34,486 nucleotides of DNA, from positions 1 to 34,486 of the IMG/VR virus record IMGVR_UViG_3300003779_000001; one strand, written 5' to 3'. Each line of letters opens with the position of its first letter. Positions within the stretch are counted from its first letter, which is position 1. Shown one piece after another: positions 1 to 34,486 of the stretch. Position numbers and translations under genes: made by a program. The DNA comes from a virus. A model generated the notes under the pieces. The model was not told where the DNA came from, did no database searches, and saw only the letters and a program-made list of their open reading frames with translations.

Positions 1-99
1 GACTGTTAGCCAAACTCGTTTTCCCGAAGTCGATCCAGGTACTCGTTCACGGGGTAGCCCTCGGTAAACTCACTGTCCTCGATCTTGTCGAGGTCCACC
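1..99. repeat. Terminal direct repeat copy 1 (identical to 34388..34486); circular-assembly overlap
   Basis: Bases 1..99 (gactgttagccaaactcg...cgaggtccacc) recur base-for-base at 34388..34486. The window is a 34,387-bp circle opened inside the 3' end of a minus-strand gene. Confidence 0.95.
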
Positions 100-446
100 T
101 CAGGGGGCTGGATGAAGACTACGGCGCCATCCACTACTCGAATAACCTTTCCTTGCTCATCGTAATTGAGCGTGCCCCGAACCCGCACTCGCTTGTGCTG
201 CCAAACGTCGCCGGCGGCCATAGCCACGCTAATCTCATCTCGCGTTGCCACGCTAACTCGGCACCAAAAACGACGCCCCATGTTCTTTTCCTCCAGTTGC
301 AATGCCGGCTCGTTGTAATCTGTGCCAATATCGACTAACCGGCCTTCAACAGAACCGACCTCTCGGCGGGACGTTCTAGGGAATAGGTAGCTATGTAGGG
401 ACTCCACAGGGGCAAGAATCTCTCCAAAACATCTGTTAGCGGACAT
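6..446 (-). CDS. Hypothetical protein (146 aa), last gene of the leftward early/replication operon
   Basis: ORF track gives 6..476(-). I prefer the ATG at 446 (MSANRCFGEIL...) because GGAG lies 7 nt upstream. No family recognised. The segment HKRVRVRGTLNYDEQGKVIRVVDGAVVF gives a weak beta-rich/OB-like impression only. Confidence 0.6.
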   Translation of the reverse strand: MSANRCFGEILAPVESLHSYLFPRTSRREVGSVEGRLVDIGTDYNEPALQLEEKNMGRRFWCRVSVATRDEISVAMAAGDVWQHKRVRVRGTLNYDEQGKVIRVVDGAVVFIQPPEVDLDKIEDSEFTEGYPVNEYLDRLRENEFG

Positions 447-544
447 GATATATCTCCAACTTTTTGATTCCATCAATACGATTCAAAGATCGGGTACGTT
501 AGGTATAATAACGCCCTTTTTGACCAGGCATTTCGTCGCCATAG

Positions 545-2209
545 TCAGCAATCTATCCGCCTCAAGACGACGGAGACAGGCAAGTCCAAGTCCAGGAGAT
601 CGCCGCCCTGCATCAGAAAAACGCTCTCCTGCCTAAAACAAAGCTTCTTGCCGTATTCCGCATTCCGCTGCTTTTCGATCGTCACCATAATTCCTCCTTC
701 CGCAGCTTCATCTTCCTGCTCTTCATCCGGCTCCTGGCTCACCATGCTCAGCACGCTGTCTGCCGCTCCCAACAAGGCGTTCGAGCCGCGCATCCCCCTA
801 GCAACATCCTTGCCGGAATGATGAATTAAAAGAACGGCACAACCCAACGCATTGCGTAGCAAGTCAACGCTTCTGACAACCGCACCAACGTCTTGCGCGC
901 TATTCTCGTCGCCGCTCATCGAGCGTGCCAGCGTGTCGAAAACGATGAGCGACAAGGACGACATTTCTTCCACAGCATTCACCGCCGCAACGAAATTCTC
1001 CATATCTTCTAGCGAAGAAAGATCGACGCCTGCCAATGAAAAATAAGCTCGTGAAGTCAGCGGCAGACCAGCATCCCAATGCCAGGTCGTTATGCGTCCC
1101 TTCAACCCGCCAAGTCCTTCGTTCATAACGTATAAAATATCAGACGCACCGGAAACCCCATGGCCCTGCCAGCTTACGCCATTGGCAATGCTCAGGACCA
1201 TGTCCAGCCCGAGAAAGGTCTTGCCGACCCCCGGCGGGCCATACAAGACCGCCAAGCCATGCCGCTCAATGATATTCGAGATAAGCCATTCCTGAGGCGG
1301 AAGAGCCATAAGCTCGCCGGCGGAAAGAAACCGCTTGAAACGAGTATCGGGACCTGGCGCCGATCGATGCCGGACGTATTCGTCGGATACGTGATCCCCC
1401 AGCGACGACCCGTCCAGTCCTTTTGGGAGCAGACGGTCGGGTTTACCACCAGGTCCCGATACCAATGGTTTAGCCGCATCAGCAATATCAAGTAAAGCGG
1501 TTCTCGTGCCACCATCGTCTATCCAGTCGGATGCGTCATACCCCCGCTGGCATTCGCCCGTCGAGGCCTCCGCAAGCGAGACCACCGTGATCGTTCGAGC
1601 AACGCCGTCCAGCTGCCGACACACGTCCTCGGCATGCTTCATGCCGGCTTCATCGTGATCAGGAAGAATAATCACATTGCGGTCGGCAAACCACTTGTTC
1701 AGCCGCGCCGACCAGTTGCTTGCACCACCATCGCTAGTTGTCGCCAAGACGCCTAAGCGGTTCAGCCGATCAGCGTCTTTCTCTCCCTCGACAATGAATA
1801 TCGGCTCGTCACTACGCTCGATGAGCTCGGGAAGCCGGTAGGGAACACGGGCGCGATTGCCGCGGCCCCACACCGTCTCTGCCCCGACCCGGTGCCGCAT
1901 TCTGAAGGTCTTGGGAATATACCGGACAACCTCATAGGCAACGGCACCGCTCTCGTCATGATATGGATAAACCGCTTCCGGTTCCATGCGGTCCGGCATC
2001 GAAACCCCTCCCTGGAAACGCCCGATGAAATCCTTGATGCCGCCGCCAACAGCGTTTTCGTGGTCGTACCATATGCCTCGGTCGAGATTAACGATCAGCG
2101 AACCATGATTGCCCCACCGCAACTCCGTCTTGCTCGAAAGTCGGCGGTTCGCTGGTCCCAGAATATCTGTGGCGATGCGCTCCAATTCTCCCCTAGAAGG
2201 GAATTTCAT
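545..2209 (-). CDS. Bifunctional DNA primase / replicative helicase (Toprim + RecA/DnaB-like P-loop ATPase)
   Basis: 574-aa ORF. The likely start is the ATG at 2209 (MKFPSRGELERIA). Toprim motifs are IFIVEGEKDADRL and ILPDHDEAG. The C-terminal ATPase has Walker A VLYGPPGVGKTF, Walker B-like LSLIVFDTL, and LLIHHSGKD. The architecture matches P4-alpha/RepA-type primase-helicases. Confidence 0.85.
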   Translation of the reverse strand: MKFPSRGELERIATDILGPANRRLSSKTELRWGNHGSLIVNLDRGIWYDHENAVGGGIKDFIGRFQGGVSMPDRMEPEAVYPYHDESGAVAYEVVRYIPKTFRMRHRVGAETVWGRGNRARVPYRLPELIERSDEPIFIVEGEKDADRLNRLGVLATTSDGGASNWSARLNKWFADRNVIILPDHDEAGMKHAEDVCRQLDGVARTITVVSLAEASTGECQRGYDASDWIDDGGTRTALLDIADAAKPLVSGPGGKPDRLLPKGLDGSSLGDHVSDEYVRHRSAPGPDTRFKRFLSAGELMALPPQEWLISNIIERHGLAVLYGPPGVGKTFLGLDMVLSIANGVSWQGHGVSGASDILYVMNEGLGGLKGRITTWHWDAGLPLTSRAYFSLAGVDLSSLEDMENFVAAVNAVEEMSSLSLIVFDTLARSMSGDENSAQDVGAVVRSVDLLRNALGCAVLLIHHSGKDVARGMRGSNALLGAADSVLSMVSQEPDEEQEDEAAEGGIMVTIEKQRNAEYGKKLCFRQESVFLMQGGDLLDLDLPVSVVLRRIDC

Positions 2210-2777
2210 CGTCCAGGCTTTGCGCACCCACCGTACCCACTGCGGGCGGCGCATGAACAGGCGGCGCAACGTTACCCGAGCTCTTGCCGGATTCCGGAAG
2301 CGTGGCGCGATCGACCGTCTTCACGAAAGCGAGCTGAGGAACGTTCAGCATCGTATTCCCGGCGGCGACATTCTCGACGCCGGTTATTTGAATGACCGGC
2401 AAGACGCCAGACTGGGCCGTCTTACTCACCACGGTCGGCCAAACTCGTGAAATGGCAAGCCGCGACGCCTTGCCCGTCGTTGACCAGGTGAGCCAGCCGT
2501 GCGCATTGTCATAGAGATCAATCGTAAAACCCCGACGCCAAGTCATTCCAGGAGTGTCTTCTGGTTTGGCGTCTTGACGCCCAACGACCGTATCCCATTG
2601 CCATTCCGTCCGGTTGCTACTTTGCGAGAAACATCCCCACCCCGTGCGCAAGGTGACAGGGTCGAGAACGAAGTGAACCAAGGTCACGACTTCCTTGTTC
2701 ACCACCCACTGATTGGCTACCGATCGGTAGTTAATAAAAGTCCTGTTTTCGTCTAAAATTTGAAGAGGGTCGTTCAT
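2193..2777 (-). CDS. SSB-like early protein with the bacterial SSB C-terminal tip motif (DDEIPF)
   Basis: 194 aa, with RBS GGAGAA 6 nt before the ATG at 2777. A Trp-rich N-terminal domain (WQWD, WRRGF, GWLTW) is followed by a Pro/Ala/Gly linker (SGNVAPPVHAPPAVGTVGAQ) and the terminal SLDDEIPF. It overlaps the primase-helicase start by 17 nt. The fold is not recognisably a canonical OB SSB. Confidence 0.6.
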   Translation of the reverse strand: MNDPLQILDENRTFINYRSVANQWVVNKEVVTLVHFVLDPVTLRTGWGCFSQSSNRTEWQWDTVVGRQDAKPEDTPGMTWRRGFTIDLYDNAHGWLTWSTTGKASRLAISRVWPTVVSKTAQSGVLPVIQITGVENVAAGNTMLNVPQLAFVKTVDRATLPESGKSSGNVAPPVHAPPAVGTVGAQSLDDEIPF

Positions 2778-2800: not shown

Positions 2801-2836
2801 CAGCCCCCCTTCTCTCCTAAGAGAGAAGGGGGGCTG
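2801..2836 (-). promoter_or_regulatory. Perfect 16-bp-stem hairpin between the TM-peptide ORF and the SSB-like gene
   Basis: cagccccccttctctc / ctaa / gagagaaggggggctg. No U-tract follows on either strand, so it is more likely an RNA processing/stability element or a protein site than an intrinsic terminator. Confidence 0.5.
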
Positions 2837-2841
2837 ATCAA

Positions 2842-2949
2842 CTAGATCATCATGATGATCAGCCAAGCTACGAAAGCGCCGACCAGTATGGTTATCTTGC
2901 TTGGTCCGGCTCGAACAGTTTCAGCCATCTGATTCTTTTCGTCTGTCAT
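2842..2949 (-). CDS. Small membrane peptide (35 aa), not in the ORF track
   Basis: Hand translation gives MTDEKNQMAETVRAGPSKITILVGAFVAWLIIMMI*, with one hydrophobic helix. AAGGAAA lies upstream of the ATG at 2949. It fills an otherwise empty gap in a tightly packed operon. Confidence 0.4.
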   Translation of the reverse strand: MTDEKNQMAETVRAGPSKITILVGAFVAWLIIMMI

Positions 2950-3056: not shown

Positions 3057-3392
3057 CTAGGGCCTCCTGGAGGGCTTTAAACTGCAAGGCTTCCAAAACG
3101 ATAATTCTTCGGGATTTTCCCGGTAATAAGAACATGCTGGCGTTTTGGGCGGCAGCTGATTGATAAAAGACTTCGTATAAGCCGTATATTTTGCGCAGTG
3201 ACCTGGCTTAAGCTGATTGCCGCGCCTTCGGTTCGTCGCCGAATAGTAGCCGTTATTATTGAAAAATTGACAATTAAAGCAGAAAGTATATGCCGGACCC
3301 GTGCCGGCCAGGTACATCATGCCGGAAGGTGATTTTTTGAACGCTCGCTTCAGTTCCGAATCATAAAGGTTCGTAAGATTTTCCCGTTTCAT
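3057..3392 (-). CDS. Cys-rich small protein (111 aa), possible zinc-binding
   Basis: ORF track gives 3057..3539. The ATG at 3392 (MKRENLTNLYD...) has GGGAGA 7 nt upstream. Cysteine pattern is CFNC...HC...C...C. The gene is AT-richer than its neighbours. Confidence 0.6.
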   Translation of the reverse strand: MKRENLTNLYDSELKRAFKKSPSGMMYLAGTGPAYTFCFNCQFFNNNGYYSATNRRRGNQLKPGHCAKYTAYTKSFINQLPPKTPACSYYRENPEELSFWKPCSLKPSRRP

Positions 3393-3522
3393 GTGCAATT
3401 CTCCCGAAACTTCCGAAATCACAAAAATTTTCTGCCACGGGGAGCAGACACTGCTAGCCCCCCCGCCCCCCCCTAAACACTTCTCGCGCGCGGCGTTGTG
3501 TGTAAAAAGGAGCCTCTTGTAA

Positions 3523-3542
3523 CGCGTGACCATGGTCACGCG
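3523..3542. promoter_or_regulatory. 20-bp perfect palindrome just downstream of the wHTH gene stop
   Basis: cgcgtgac catg gtcacgcg, forming an 8-bp stem with a 4-nt loop in RNA. It lies in the 3393..3549 intergenic spacer. Confidence 0.45.
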
Positions 3543-3549
3543 CTAGAAG

Positions 3550-4242
3550 TCACAGCAGCCCCGCAGCTTTGGCGACAACCCCCAGAGAAGCCGTGGAAGC
3601 TCCAGTTTCCGCAGCTTTCAGCACTGCGTCCCGTACATCCTCGGGCGTGCATCCGCGCTCTGCGAGCTGCTGTGCGTCCTTTATCTGCTGCGACGCAATG
3701 CGGAGCGAGCCAGTCGCTCGCTCCACAGCGTGAGTGAATGTGTGTGCGAGGATATTGGCTGACGCCTCGATTTCCCTGAATCCCTTCGTTCTCGCGTCCT
3801 CTTCCGGCACGACGCCTGTTTCTGCGGTATCATCGGCGATCTTCGGTCGCGGAGCGTAGAATTGCTCTCGCGACGGCAGTTCGGATTGCGGCCCGTCGAA
3901 CAGGACCTGATACCTGTTAGTACGCCAACGGGACTTTTGCTGTACCGGCATTGGATACTTACGCGGCTGCAACTTGCGGACATAGCCGGCGTTAATGAGG
4001 CGAGTCATATGGCGTGAGACGGTACGAGGACCGCGAGAGATATGCCGACCGAGAGTAATCTGGCTCGGCCAGCAAATTCCGTAGGCGTTGGTATGCAAAC
4101 ACAATGCGGCCAGCACACGTAATGTCGTGATATGCAGCTGGTCGTCCTGAACGGCGCGAGCGGGCAGGACGGAGTAACGACGGATTTTAGGTTTCGATTT
4201 TGGCACGGGCGAGATCGTAGTGGAGCGCGTTTGACCAGTCAA
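3550..4242 (-). CDS. Winged-helix/HTH DNA-binding protein (regulator or origin-binding initiator), first gene of the leftward operon
   Basis: The ORF opens with TTG at 4242. There is no in-frame ATG before residue 79, and GTG at 4206 is an alternative start. The HTH-like core is LRVLAALCLHTNAYGICWPSQITLGRHISRGPRTVSRHMTRLINAGYVRK. Confidence 0.75.
   Translation of the reverse strand: MTGQTRSTTISPVPKSKPKIRRYSVLPARAVQDDQLHITTLRVLAALCLHTNAYGICWPSQITLGRHISRGPRTVSRHMTRLINAGYVRKLQPRKYPMPVQQKSRWRTNRYQVLFDGPQSELPSREQFYAPRPKIADDTAETGVVPEEDARTKGFREIEASANILAHTFTHAVERATGSLRIASQQIKDAQQLAERGCTPEDVRDAVLKAAETGASTASLGVVAKAAGLL
4214..4242 (-). promoter_or_regulatory. Candidate leftward promoter TTGACT-17-TACGAT (would make the wHTH mRNA leaderless from GTG 4206)
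   Basis: On the minus strand: TTGACT (4242..4237), a 17-nt spacer, TACGAT (4219..4214), then 7 nt to GTG at 4206. It competes with the TTG-4242 start call. Confidence 0.3.
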
Positions 4243-4277: not shown

Positions 4278-4325
4278 CAGCACCTTATTTCCCCCCCCTT
4301 TAAGGGGGGGGGAAATAAGGTGCTG
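4278..4325. repeat. 21-bp-arm inverted repeat with C8/G9 homopolymer core in the divergent early control region
   Basis: cagcaccttatttcccccccc (4278..4298) / tttaag / ggggggggaaataaggtgctg (4305..4325). It lies between the two divergent early operons, 18 nt upstream of the rightward -35. Confidence 0.6.
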
Positions 4326-4342: not shown

Positions 4343-4371
4343 TTGACACTGCCTGATACATGCGGTATAAA
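4343..4371 (+). promoter_or_regulatory. Near-consensus sigma70 promoter for the rightward early operon
   Basis: TTGACA (4343..4348), exactly 17 nt of spacer, TATAAA (4366..4371). It is followed by RBS GGGAGA and the ATG at 4401. Confidence 0.7.
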
Positions 4372-4400
4372 GAATATTAATTACATAAAAGGGAGATAAA

Positions 4401-13017: not shown

Positions 13018-13108
13018 GCTGATAATTTTGATAGTCCGGTTAAAATTTTCTATTGCTCCACCAAGCATGTTCATGCTAGTCTCAAATAAACCAATTAAAG
13101 AGGCGATC

Positions 13109-13798
13109 ATGGAAAAATTTGAAGGATACATCTCCTATCTTCGTGTTTCGACGCAACGTCAAGGTCAATCCGGCCTCGGGCTAGAGGCTCAACGCAAGAC
13201 AATCTGCGATTTTCTTGGCAACACAAAGCCGCTTGCGGAATTTGTTGAGGTGGAGTCGGGAAGAAAGGACGAAGATGAACGACCACAACTTGAAGCAGCT
13301 ATCATTCAATGTCAGAAATTGAATGCGATATTGGTCGTCGCAAAGCTTGATAGATTATCTCGGAGCTTGGCCTTCATCACGAGGCTAAAGAAGGCAGGCA
13401 TTCGATTTGTTGCCTGCGATATGCCAGACCTACAGGATCCGGCAACATCAGGTCTCTTTCTAAATTTCATGGGCGCGATTGCCGAGTTTGAAAGCAAGCA
13501 AAACTCCCAACGTGTCAAAGCGGCTCTAGCGGCCAAGAAAGCTCGTGGCGAAAAGAAAAGACTGCCTGAAAACTATAAAGAGCTTGCGGCGAAAGCCAAT
13601 GAAGCCTACCGAAAAAAAAACCACGAGTGGACGAAGTCCGTATGGGTGATCATCCAGGAACTGGAAGCCTATGGCTGTACGACGCTGAAAAAAATAGCCG
13701 AAGGCTTGGAGGCGCGCGGCGTCAAAACGTTCCGTGGGCATAGCAAATGGTCCGAATCGAGCGTGATGTCGGTTCGCAACCGAATGAGGGGCACCTGA
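13109..13798 (+). CDS. Small serine recombinase (resolvase/invertase catalytic domain + short recombinase-type C-terminal HTH region)
   Basis: ATG at 13109 with AAGAGG upstream. YISYLRVSTQRQGQSGLGLEAQR contains the catalytic Ser. Also LVVAKLDRLSRS and AEFES. The C-terminus TLKKIAEGLEARGVKTFRGHSKWSESSVMSVRNR resembles the recombinase domain of large serine recombinases. Confidence 0.85.
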   Translation: MEKFEGYISYLRVSTQRQGQSGLGLEAQRKTICDFLGNTKPLAEFVEVESGRKDEDERPQLEAAIIQCQKLNAILVVAKLDRLSRSLAFITRLKKAGIRFVACDMPDLQDPATSGLFLNFMGAIAEFESKQNSQRVKAALAAKKARGEKKRLPENYKELAAKANEAYRKKNHEWTKSVWVIIQELEAYGCTTLKKIAEGLEARGVKTFRGHSKWSESSVMSVRNRMRGT

Positions 13799-14115: not shown

Positions 14116-14430
14116 CTAGAGGGAATGACTACGTTCATAGGTCTTTTGAAGGTTTAGGAAATACTCGGCAGAAATCCCAAAAGCCTTGGAAAGCGATTGC
14201 GCCATGTCCGGGCTGATTTCTTGCTTTCCAGCAAGGATCATGTTCACTGCTCGCTCTGGAACGTCAAGGATATACGCAAGGTCCCGCTGCACCCATCCGC
14301 GTGCTTCCAATTCATCTCGAATGAACTCTCCTGGATGAGGGACTTCGTTCAACAGTGCTGCAATGCTCATCTTGTGTGCCTCGTCTGTATATATCCGTGT
14401 CAAATCGTCATTTGCGAACTTTATTTCCAT
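14116..14430 (-). CDS. higA: HigA-type XRE antitoxin-like protein carrying a ~20-aa HigB-like N-terminal stub
   Basis: PHPGEFIRDELEARGWVQRDLAYILDVPERAVNMILAGKQEISPDMAQSLSKAFGISAEYFLNLQKTYE is a classic HigA pattern. Residues 1-20 (MEIKFANDDLTRIYTDEAHK) look like the start of a HigB/RelE toxin. The internal ATG at 14370 has GAGG upstream and may be the real start. Confidence 0.8.
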   Translation of the reverse strand: MEIKFANDDLTRIYTDEAHKMSIAALLNEVPHPGEFIRDELEARGWVQRDLAYILDVPERAVNMILAGKQEISPDMAQSLSKAFGISAEYFLNLQKTYERSHSL

Positions 14431-14460: not shown

Positions 14461-14507
14461 ATCAAAATAAACGACTTAACGCCATGCGTTAAGTCGTTTA
14501 TTTTGAT
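14461..14507. repeat. Perfect palindrome, 22-bp arms with a 3-nt centre
   Basis: atcaaaataaacgacttaacgc / cat / gcgttaagtcgtttattttgat. It lies between the late-operon terminator and the HigA-like gene start. Confidence 0.9.
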
Positions 14508-14530
14508 ATATGCTTGACTATCGATCACTT

Positions 14531-14552
14531 TAAAAAACTGCCGATGGGCAGT
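14531..14552 (-). terminator. Rho-independent terminator of the late (virion) operon
   Basis: The minus strand reads actgcc-catc-ggcagt followed by TTTTTTA, 5 nt after the fibre-gene stop. Confidence 0.65.
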
Positions 14553-32506: not shown

Positions 32507-33340
32507 TTAGGTTACCGTCCAACGAGCGGCATAAATGCCATCAGGATCGATCCCCACCGCGCCGGCGGAAAACATCGATGCCACGAGATATGACGTTTTC
32601 TCCGGCACGTAATCGATTTTCGTCGTCATGTCCATCGCCGTGCCAAGACCGATAGCATTCTTGTGCCATGCATACATATCGACCCAAGTCGACGGATCGG
32701 CGTCGTGCCTCGGCAAACCGCCCTCGCTACGATCTCCGATACAAACGATTTTCATGCCGAGATACGTATTGAGCTCGCCGGAGACCAGGGCTTTAACGGT
32801 ATGATAATCGGACGAAGTCACCGTCGCAAGCTCCAGAAGCTTCGCCAGATGTTCAGCATGAATCAGGCACGTCCGGTCCTCATGCGGGACATTCTTCTTA
32901 TCGAGAGCGGTCTTGGCCTTGATGAACTCCCCCAGATCAATAGTTTGTGCCGTCAGGGTCGCGGTATTGGCGCTCGTGAGCGCATCGATGATGACCTGGT
33001 CCATCCGCCGCCCGATGGCACCGGCGACGACCGTGACGAGCTCGTTGCGCTCGTCCCAATTGATGTGACTCTGATTGAAGATGTCACTGAATTCCGCAGC
33101 AATCCAATCGTCGAGCGTCGCCGTCACCTGGGCATGGTCCACATGCATCGGCATGACATCGACCATGGGCGAGCGCCTGCTCGCGACACCCTCCCCAAGG
33201 GTCGGAAACTTGACCGTCTTCGCCCCCTGCGCGCTTTTCTCTCGAACGGTCCCGGCGAGAGCCCGCTGGGCCTGATAAGCATGTTTAACCTCTGTGTCGA
33301 ACAGAGTGACAAAAGCTTTGCTAACACTCGAAACTGCCAC
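32507..33340 (-). CDS. Major capsid protein (HK97-fold, short podovirus type)
   Basis: GTG start with AGGAGA 7 nt upstream. FVTLFDTEVKHAYQAQRALAGTVR...GAIGRRMDQVIIDAL fits the f...v..ayQ...L...vr ... alGR..D..ii.A capsid pattern. It follows the scaffold gene. Confidence 0.8.
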   Translation of the reverse strand: MAVSSVSKAFVTLFDTEVKHAYQAQRALAGTVREKSAQGAKTVKFPTLGEGVASRRSPMVDVMPMHVDHAQVTATLDDWIAAEFSDIFNQSHINWDERNELVTVVAGAIGRRMDQVIIDALTSANTATLTAQTIDLGEFIKAKTALDKKNVPHEDRTCLIHAEHLAKLLELATVTSSDYHTVKALVSGELNTYLGMKIVCIGDRSEGGLPRHDADPSTWVDMYAWHKNAIGLGTAMDMTTKIDYVPEKTSYLVASMFSAGAVGIDPDGIYAARWTVT

Positions 33341-33434: not shown

Positions 33435-34202
33435 CTACTCGTCTTCATCAAAAAACCGTTTAAACGCATCCTCGACCCGCCTCGTGTAAATCATATCAAC
33501 GCCATAACGCTTATCCGCAACCATAGCATCGAGATCTTCACGATCACGAAGGGCGCTCGTCTCGGAGGCGGGCGTGTCAGGAATTCCGGGGCTCCTATAG
33601 GCATTGCGAATCTTCTGCAATGCCCGAACGCCATCCGCCGTCTTGACCCCGCTCACCAACGCATTCGCCTCTTCGACAGAAATGTCCTTCGAATCAACCA
33701 GCTTGCCAAGCCACCGGTTCACCTCCCCGATAACATTGTCCGCCCCCGGCCCCAGGAGCTCCCGCTCCCGCCTTGCATTCCCCTCAAGCTCATCCACTAC
33801 GCCGAGATACAAACGCATCCCGTCATCATACATCTCTTGAGTGAACCGATGCTTGCGCGCGAGCTCGGTGTACTCGGACAGCTTCTCATCCTCAGCGTCA
33901 ATCCCCATCTCCGCCGTGAGATCGGAAGCGTAAACACCGTCTTCCGGAATGCCCGCATCCCTTTCGGAAACCTGTTTTTCCAAGTCCAGGTACGCCGCCC
34001 CTAACCCTTTGGTGTCAATCCCGCGCTCATCAGACCAAAACTTTTCAGGGATATACTCGGGCCGGGTGGCGGGAGCATCCTCAGGAGCGGCATCAGAGGG
34101 TTTGCCCTCTGTAGCCGTATCGGCAACACCGTTATCGGCGGGACTCAATAACGTTTCAGCAGGAGTGTCCTCAGTATTCACAGACGCTTCTTCGGGCACC
34201 AC
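33435..34202 (-). CDS. Scaffolding protein (T7 gp9-like)
   Basis: Acidic 255-aa protein. PEYIPEKFWSDERGIDTKGLGAAYLDLEKQV resembles the scaffold IPEKF....L.ksY.eLEk motif. There are two adjacent GTG codons (34202, 34199) after GGGAGA. It is the first gene of the late operon. Confidence 0.7.
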   Translation of the reverse strand: MVPEEASVNTEDTPAETLLSPADNGVADTATEGKPSDAAPEDAPATRPEYIPEKFWSDERGIDTKGLGAAYLDLEKQVSERDAGIPEDGVYASDLTAEMGIDAEDEKLSEYTELARKHRFTQEMYDDGMRLYLGVVDELEGNARRERELLGPGADNVIGEVNRWLGKLVDSKDISVEEANALVSGVKTADGVRALQKIRNAYRSPGIPDTPASETSALRDREDLDAMVADKRYGVDMIYTRRVEDAFKRFFDEDE

Positions 34203-34232
34203 AATCTCCCTTTCATCATATGACGAACAAAC

Positions 34233-34260
34233 ATTATCAATCTATTGCCCAGACGGTCAA
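34233..34260 (-). promoter_or_regulatory. Candidate sigma70-type late-operon promoter TTGACC-16-GATAAT
   Basis: On the minus strand: TTGACC (34260..34255), a 16-nt spacer, GATAAT (34238..34233). It sits ~25 nt upstream of the scaffold RBS/start. Confidence 0.55.
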
Positions 34261-34273
34261 GCCAGTGTATAAT
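34245..34273 (+). promoter_or_regulatory. Candidate rightward promoter TTGCCC-17-TATAAT, back-to-back with the late promoter
   Basis: TTGCCC (34245..34250), a 17-nt spacer, then a perfect TATAAT (34268..34273). Its -35 region overlaps the -35 region of the leftward promoter. Confidence 0.55.
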
Positions 34274-34279
34274 CACCAT

Positions 34280-34364
34280 CTCGCCATCGATGGTTAGCCG
34301 CATCGATCATACCCTCCCTGACCAAACTGGTCCTCCCTTCCTCCCAAGGGAGGACCTCTTTTTT
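34280..34364 (+). ncRNA. Candidate ~85-nt small RNA delimited by the orphan promoter and orphan terminator
   Basis: There is no plausible + strand CDS. The predicted RNA has a 5' hairpin (atcgatgg/ttag/ccgcatcgat), a single-stranded C/U-rich stretch (acccucccug), and a terminator hairpin whose loop contains CCUCC. Confidence 0.4.
34329..34364 (+). terminator. Rho-independent terminator on the + strand
   Basis: ggtcctccct / tcctccca / agggaggacc followed by TCTTTTTT. In the minus orientation no U-tract follows. Confidence 0.7.
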
Positions 34365-34387
34365 GGCATCCCAGTAGTATTTCGACC

Positions 34388-34486
34388 GACTGTTAGCCAA
34401 ACTCGTTTTCCCGAAGTCGATCCAGGTACTCGTTCACGGGGTAGCCCTCGGTAAACTCACTGTCCTCGATCTTGTCGAGGTCCACC
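34388..34486. repeat. Terminal direct repeat copy 2 (identical to 1..99)
   Basis: See copy 1. It duplicates the 3' end of the 6..446(-) gene. Confidence 0.95.

Follow-up and report, generated by a model that had tools for sequence, protein, structure and literature searches.

Overlapping promoters and a strand-specific terminator delimit a candidate small RNA gene next to the structural operon of a marine podovirus

Introduction

Phage-encoded small RNAs (sRNAs) are known mainly from enterobacterial temperate phages and, to our knowledge, almost nothing is known of such RNAs in marine or alphaproteobacterial phages. The present analysis concerns a candidate sRNA gene at 34245..34364 (+ strand) of IMG/VR virus record IMGVR_UViG_3300003779_000001, which was analysed over its entire length of 34,486 nucleotides (hereafter the window) and comes from an uncultured marine podovirus, T7-like in structure. 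Among described phage RNAs, the closest counterparts are lambda OOP RNA (77 nt) and P22 sar RNA (68/69 nt), each of which has its own constitutive-type promoter and intrinsic terminator and is transcribed counter to a phage operon at a regulatory junction, OOP covering the 3' coding end of cII and sar the ant ribosome-binding site (RBS). Divergent overlapping promoter pairs, e.g., lambda PR/PRM, act as switches, and the locus considered here bears on the timing of late genes in small podoviruses that lack an RNA polymerase of their own.

The closest bacterial counterparts belong to two families. RNAs of the alphaR8 family, which include MmgR of Sinorhizobium meliloti and SisA-D of Caulobacter crescentus, are alphaproteobacterial, Hfq-dependent, anti-Shine-Dalgarno (anti-SD) sRNAs, of which SisA in Caulobacter represses a TonB-dependent receptor and nutrient-uptake genes. 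The defining features of the family are a Rho-independent terminator and the internal 10-mer UUUCCUCCCU, which is single-stranded and follows a weak hairpin (PMC12559287). Cuckoo RNAs (alpha-r14; NfeR1, CcsR1-4/RSs0680a-d) are defined by two to four adjacent hairpins of 24-50 nt, every 9-27-nt loop of which contains CCUCCUCCC (PMC4615179). No link of alphaR8 or CCUCCUCCC RNAs to phages was found in the papers searched.

Results

Promoters and terminator of the unit

Promoters were scored on both strands of the whole genome with a sigma-70 weight matrix of E. coli type, with Markov-shuffled genomes as the null. Two back-to-back promoters had been proposed from the letters of the sequence and its open reading frames (ORFs) in an earlier reading, referred to here as the original prediction, and both were located where it had placed them. 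The rightward promoter, P(+), is TTGCCC-17-TATAAT at 34245..34273 (+ strand; TATAAT at 34268..34273), a sigma-70-type promoter with a 10/12 match and a predicted start near 34280. The leftward promoter, P(-), is (C)TTGACC-16-GATAAT at 34260..34233 (- strand), with a predicted start near 34226, and precedes the scaffold start codon (GTG 34199/34202). With a score of 15.1 bits, P(+) ranked first among all positions of the genome on both strands, equally good sites occurring 0.63 times per shuffled genome, and P(-) ranked thirteenth genome-wide (12.8 bits). The same matrix recovered the evident operon promoters at 4343 (TTGACA-17-TATAAA, before GGGAGA-ATG 4401) and 4242; recovery of promoters of operon-leading genes indicates that the sigma-70 model suits this phage.

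P(+) sits in one of the few intergenic regions of the phage, arranged back to back with the scaffold/capsid promoter and overlapping it, and it faces no gene, as had been claimed, no + strand gene being present downstream. The overlap of the promoters had been ascribed to their -35 regions. The promoter cores indeed share 16 bp; the -35 hexamers themselves do not overlap, each lying within the spacer of the other promoter at a distance of 10 bp (one helical turn) from its counterpart. The predicted starts are about 54 bp apart. A second antisense promoter-like site (TTCAAA-16-TATAAT, 13.3 bits, rank 8), with no terminator after it, was noted at 482..509 (+ strand), where a gap of 98 bp separates the primase/helicase gene from an antitoxin-like gene.

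The second component of the unit is an intrinsic terminator at 34329..34364 (+ strand), consisting of an 11-bp stem (34329..34356) with the loop CCUCCC, followed by UCUUUUUU (dG -20 kcal/mol), the U-run after the + strand hairpin being TCTTTTTT at 34357..34364. The hairpin and U-run thus occupy the position given in the original prediction, except that the stem is not a 10-bp GC stem but has 11 bp (7 G-C and 4 A-U) with a 6-nt loop, and the stem begins 49 nt, rather than about 55 nt, after 34280, the U-run ending at +85. The d'Aubenton-Carafa-type score (d) of the hairpin was +10.4 on the + strand vs -25.6 on the - strand, so that in silico it scores as a terminator in the claimed orientation only. 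The - strand tail, AGUUUGGUC, had a T-score of 0.96, and the U-tracts on both strands that mark a bidirectional terminator were therefore not found here.

Terminators with d of at least 10 numbered three in the genome vs 0.2 in shuffles. The remaining strong ones are at an operon end, 14472..14551, with T-runs on the transcribed strands, and served as positive controls for the scoring: a bidirectional terminator at 14472..14496, with T-runs on both strands (d = 12.3 and 10.9), and a second - strand terminator at 14538..14551, just past the tail-fibre gene. The correct orientation of these terminators indicates that the phage uses canonical terminators in the right orientation where needed. The description of the terminator at 34329..34364 as an orphan holds with respect to + strand genes, but on the - strand a gene ends (stop codon 34395..34393) 37 nt upstream of the hairpin, which directly abuts a remnant of vapC.

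The joint chance of such a promoter being followed by such a terminator within 150 nt on the same strand was roughly estimated, as a product of rates, at about 3e-4. The promoter-terminator unit is real and is unlikely to be chance; the discrete + strand unit without an ORF that had been claimed is present and statistically unusual. If it is expressed, phage sRNAs could be mined from metagenomes by a simple rule, namely a search for the best promoter paired with a strand-specific terminator and no intervening ORF; otherwise, the locus is an ordinary intergenic region with a terminator.

The predicted RNA

The unit at 34245..34364 may be a self-contained sRNA gene on the + strand, a reading to which we give about even odds on the evidence of promoter, terminator and predicted fold, and it probably makes a non-coding RNA of about 85 nt that resembles bacterial RBS-masking RNAs. 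The predicted RNA (34280..34364, + strand), which has no usable ORF, folded in the layout originally described, with a 5' hairpin, a single-stranded stretch and the terminator (minimum free energy -29.5 kcal/mol, z = -4.6), nearly all of the fold energy coming from the terminator. The 5' hairpin (34286..34307, + strand) is weak, with 7 bp, the loop GUUAGCCG and an energy of -8.3 kcal/mol (z = -1.2). Between hairpin and terminator, about 21 nt (34308..34328) are unpaired and include the C/U-rich, anti-SD-like stretch UACCCUCCCUG at 34310..34320 (+ strand), for which the unpaired probability was about 0.9 or more.

The 5' hairpin is formed by two ATCGAT palindromes 16 bp apart, and CCATCGATGG is a perfect 10-mer palindrome. 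The arrangement ATCGAT-N10-ATCGAT occurs once in the genome, against an expected 0.03, at +7..+28 of P(+) and about -60..-81 of P(-). A shared operator was not indicated, ATCGAT occurring 18 times, mostly inside ORFs, and the twin palindrome at no other promoter.

Three ORFs across the region were considered and rejected. The + strand ORF from ATG 34290 lacks a Shine-Dalgarno (SD) sequence and its frame crosses the terminator. A 41-codon - strand ORF from ATG 34303 has a good SD sequence but contains the late promoter, and a - strand ORF of 47 codons joins the vapC remnant to intergenic sequence; none of the three is a credible gene.

Comparison with known small RNAs and switches

No match to the region was found in Rfam at gathering thresholds. 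Below these thresholds, RF00519 (suhB/MmgR, alphaR8) matched in full length on the + strand with 22.0 bits (E = 0.02 for the 337 nt searched; gathering threshold 41) and RF02344 (ar14) matched in full length on the same strand with 21.1 bits (local E = 0.051; gathering threshold 58.8). These were the only bacterial sRNA families that matched the region, and both matches coincide with the predicted RNA. The anti-SD appearance of the RNA noted in the original prediction is thereby echoed in two alphaproteobacterial anti-SD sRNA families, with scores that are below threshold for membership; we regard the matches as resemblance and not as a demonstration of homology.

The likeness to alphaR8 extends to size (the candidate has about 85 nt, the Rfam model 77 and SisA 83), to an independent gene with its own promoter and to the order of elements, in which a weak hairpin at the 5' end is followed by a single-stranded, C/U-rich anti-SD stretch and then by a Rho-independent terminator. 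Both the terminator and the weak upstream hairpin of the alphaR8 definition are present in the candidate, and UACCCUCCCU (34310..34319) agrees with the alphaR8 10-mer at 8 of 10 positions, contains the core CCUCCCU exactly and aligns to the conserved motif of RF00519. Matches to this 10-mer at 8 or more positions numbered 22 on the entire + strand, three of them within 37 nt here. Unlike alphaR8 RNAs, the candidate is on a phage rather than a bacterial chromosome and carries extra CCUCCC copies in its terminator.

With cuckoo RNAs, the candidate shares the repetition of an anti-SD motif within one short RNA and two adjacent hairpins, with a motif copy atop a hairpin (CUUCCUCCC, 34337..34345, which matches the cuckoo motif at 8 of 9 positions). 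The candidate nevertheless falls outside the cuckoo hairpin/loop definition: the loop of hairpin 1 (22 nt) lacks the motif, and hairpin 2 (28 nt) has a 6-nt loop, not one of 9-27 nt, with the motif partly in the stem.

Compared with OOP and sar RNAs, to which it has no sequence similarity, the candidate is likewise short, has a promoter and an intrinsic terminator to itself and is placed in silico to be transcribed counter to a phage operon at a regulatory junction. It ends, however, 28 nt before the stop codon of the neighbouring gene, covers neither coding sequence nor an RBS, and would be antisense only to the 3' untranslated region (UTR), up to the boundary of the vapC remnant, or to read-through RNA. 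As in promoter pairs of the lambda PR/PRM type, the outward-facing promoters are close enough for mutual occupancy effects and palindromes are nearby; unlike in those pairs, one promoter drives only an 85-nt RNA and the operator is a candidate only.

Proposed action of the unit

In the mechanism that we favour, host sigma-70 RNA polymerase would bind P(+) and start near 34280, with release at the terminator about 85 nt further on. The exposed C/U-rich stretch may then pair with purine-rich ribosome-binding regions of mRNAs and lower their translation, the targets being likelier host than phage mRNAs. Polymerase at P(+) would exclude polymerase from P(-) because the two cores overlap, and the RNA, together with convergent transcription, might counteract read-through of the early operon into the structural genes. 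That the RNA is antisense to such read-through, as had been claimed, holds by geometry, and the terminator would stop the antisense transcript from entering the early operon. In this way, the unit could be an sRNA gene and at the same time restrain leftward transcription of the late genes, and the twin ATCGAT palindromes past the P(+) start are a candidate site for a phage protein that shuts off P(+). If expressed, the 120-bp cassette would be a compact, testable model in which competing promoters, antisense transcription and an anti-SD RNA acting in trans are united, and the phage possibly the first that carries an alphaR8-like regulator.

A bolder form of this proposal seems rather improbable to us, namely that a podovirus lacking an RNA polymerase of its own (none of the large ORFs of the phage showed an RNA polymerase domain) carries a copy or mimic of a host alphaR8/cuckoo-class anti-SD sRNA, expressed from the strongest promoter of the genome and hijacking the host Hfq network, while the promoter and antisense transcript gate the early-to-late switch. 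Were it true, the phage would act as a vector in the lateral spread by which this family of sRNAs has already been inferred to disperse.

Ribosome-binding sites of the phage

The GGGAGA RBSs proposed as targets of the RNA are real, at 4391 (ATG 4401), about 3405 (ATG 3391) and 34210..34205 (GTG 34199). Two of three CCUCC copies in the RNA are partly or wholly locked within the terminator stem.

An identical 10-mer, AAAGGGAGAT, was noted at 4388..4397 and 34204..34213, where it heads the rightward (ATG 4401) and structural (GTG 34199) operons, and a third operon-leading gene (ATG 3391) has CGGGAGAA. The region 3391..3545 (- strand), which lies between two early genes, contains a 14-bp perfect palindrome (GTGACCATGGTCAC), a G-run (GGGGGGGGCGGGGGGG) and a weak terminator-like hairpin with AAATTTTTG, all before the SD sequence GGGAGA and ATG 3391; the gene listed at 3057..3539 probably starts at 3391.

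Weighing of explanations

A number of results weigh against a functional sRNA at this locus. No homologue of the unit was found in any collection searched and therefore no alignment was available for conservation or covariation. Thus, a hairpin pattern scan of IMG/VR found nothing, related loci of phages and bacteria (1.6 Mb) yielded no match with E below 0.2 to a covariance model built from the candidate (R1), and plasmid and phage sequences searched by blastn with the 96-nt unit returned chance-level matches only. The Rfam scores are about half the gathering thresholds, with a window-wide E of 2 for alphaR8, and the matches mostly restate features that were already visible, i.e., the CCUCCC motif and the terminator. 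The claim of specific pairing to phage RBSs was not borne out, the pairing being generic SD/anti-SD pairing of 5-7 bp that was no better than in shuffled controls: the mean energy of the single-stranded region with 39 phage initiation regions was -10.7 kcal/mol, as opposed to -11.8 for shuffled seeds, and 94% of shuffled seeds paired with these regions at least equally well. Both arms of the 5' hairpin are palindromic, a feature commoner in protein-binding DNA sites than in RNA stems. Finally, the hairpin is positioned where a 3' structure of the leftward early operon is expected anyway, that operon ending at 34393 without a - strand terminator of its own. A 20-mer, ACCCTCCCTGACCAAACTGG, for which one metagenome occurrence was found, was set aside as a chance match, the occurrence being inside a 470-aa ORF without the hairpin.

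The position of the hairpin raises the possibility that it is simply the 3'-end structure of the leftward early operon, in the form of a weak or factor-assisted terminator, an mRNA stabiliser or an insulator, with P(+) fortuitous or weak and no functional RNA made. No other - strand terminator occurs between the last early stop codon, 37 nt away, and the late genes; the - strand RNA of the region forms an extended structure that is more stable still than that of the + strand (-38.7 kcal/mol, z = -4.5); and the antisense promoter-like site at 482..509 in the same operon shows that such matches occur. This explanation, which we consider unlikely but worth keeping in mind, has to place the U-tract on the wrong strand (d = -25.6 for the - strand) in a phage whose T-runs elsewhere are on the transcribed strand, and it leaves to accident both the first rank of P(+) and the low joint chance of promoter and terminator. 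The - strand is also central to a very unlikely proposal in which it is the early-operon 3' UTR that functions as an RNA, with GGGAGG in a loop and a single-stranded CAGGGAGGGU, acting as a sponge for host alphaR8/cuckoo sRNAs or as a ribosome-binding decoy. By geometry, any transcription of the early operon would include this strand; AgvB and AsxR are precedents for anti-sRNAs encoded by phages; and UGGGAGGAAG could pair with UUUCCUCCCU through 8 Watson-Crick pairs and one G-U, much as the documented sponge CrfA (for SisA-D) has a G/A-rich stem-loop complementary to the alphaR8 10-mer (PMC12559287). The motifs concerned are, however, the mere complement of those on the + strand, so that sequence cannot decide between strands; the top-ranked + strand promoter and + strand U-tract are left unexplained.

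A switch that operates on DNA, with the RNA as a by-product, is also unlikely in our judgement. P(+) would compete with P(-), the terminator would serve only to stop decoy transcription into the early operon, and a phage helix-turn-helix (HTH) protein bound to the twin palindromes would block P(+) and free or activate P(-). This is consistent with the 16-bp overlap of the cores and the one-turn separation of the -35 hexamers, with the self-palindromic CCATCGATGG and ATCGAT in an arrangement unique in the genome, with the location of the palindromes at classic repressor and class I activator distances, and with the weakness of the 5' hairpin as RNA (z = -1.2). At least four HTH proteins are encoded by the phage (5059..5427, 8080..8610, 14116..14430 and 3550..4242). 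The binding protein nevertheless remains putative and the palindrome pair has no second copy at another promoter; a decoy promoter needs no best -10 element in the genome, and the three CCUCCC motifs and the alphaR8-like layout go unexplained. Coincidence of consensus-like motifs without function, in an intergenic region richer in A+T than the rest of the genome (48% G+C vs 55% genome-wide), strikes us as far-fetched. Promoter-like sites with 9/12 matches are frequent (18 per half genome vs about 11 expected), but the combination of the best promoter with one of three strong terminators within 150 nt, on the same strand and in a rare non-coding gap, is the one estimated at about 3e-4.

Neighbouring antitoxin-like gene and vapC remnant

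The - strand gene next to the unit encodes an antitoxin-like protein of 146 aa (6..446, - strand), is the last gene of the leftward early/replication operon and has its 3' end repeated at 34393..34486. Homologues of the product were found with 60-69% identity in bacterial contigs (L086, labelled Acidimangrovimonas, and L087-L089) and with 35% identity on a Methylobacterium plasmid; the homologue is adjoined by a PIN/VapC toxin gene in L087 and on the plasmid. In the phage, the toxin gene is represented by a 5' remnant of vapC at 34365..34392 (- strand), which comprises the first six codons (KYYWDA; translation LANSRSKYYWDAKKEV..). Since only these codons are left, the antitoxin-like gene at 6..446 is an orphan in the phage and may have an anti-defence role. 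The homology with toxin-antitoxin loci of bacteria ends exactly at the A-run that abuts the hairpin, and the promoter-terminator unit starts precisely at what appears to be the acquisition scar of the antitoxin-like gene. The homologues in the Acidimangrovimonas contig and on the Methylobacterium plasmid are also hints of an alphaproteobacterial gene pool.

Genome organisation and relatives

Positions 1..99 of the window are identical to 34388..34486, an exact terminal overlap of 99 nt that indicates a circularly permuted, closed assembly with a unique genome of 34,387 bp. Because of this circular permutation, the - strand ORF that is cut at the end of the window is the 3' end of the gene at 6..446. 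A second public contig (L082) was 100% identical to the window across the 14.4 kb retrieved.

The leftward structural operon is headed by the scaffold (capsid assembly) gene (33435..34199, - strand; PF05396), which is called as a 254-aa gene in L082, and the major capsid gene is next (32507..33340, - strand; major head protein phrog_3437, 8e-52). Genes for tail tube, internal and fibre proteins are also on the - strand, as is the primase/helicase gene (545..2269), and those for the small terminase, large terminase and portal are on the + strand.

The closest cultured relative is Methylophilales phage MEP301, with a capsid identity of 52%. A related contig (L083; NZQM01000224.1, 'MAG: Parvibaculum sp.') is a 12-kb phage fragment with the gene order TerS-TerL-portal-scaffold-capsid-tail tube and products 31-58% identical to those of the window; Parvibaculum as the host was rejected, the contig having a G+C content of 38% and being probably mis-binned. 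Terminase, portal, scaffold and capsid genes are colinear in MEP301 and L083, and the terminase-portal block is inverted in the genome examined here, so that the junction under study exists only in this lineage. In IMG/VR, relatives of the scaffold protein were about 30% identical and their genes are preceded by the portal gene, and a search among 5.8 billion proteins returned only the phage itself and one relative with 36% identity. Relatives of the primase/helicase were at most 35% identical over most of the length.

Three further features of the genome were noted. A strong hairpin without a U-run (about -30 kcal/mol), with the purine/pyrimidine arms GCCCCCCTTCTCTCC..GGAGAGAAGGGGGGC, is at 2803..2834 (- strand), just after a 35-aa ORF (2842..2949, - strand) with a hydrophobic C-terminus that is called as a gene in L082. 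In the segment 12000..14500, which is lower in G+C and has mixed gene orientations, a serine recombinase gene (13028..13798, + strand; PF00239) and a gene for an HTH_3 protein (14116..14430, - strand) were found, and this segment may represent a module for lysogeny or inversion. A near-perfect 38-nt palindrome, CCTTATTTCCCCCCCC-TTTAA-GGGGGGGGAAATAAGG (4283..4320, about -32 kcal/mol), is flanked by the divergent promoters at 4242 (-) and 4343 (+) and might serve as an operator, as an origin or as a bidirectional barrier.

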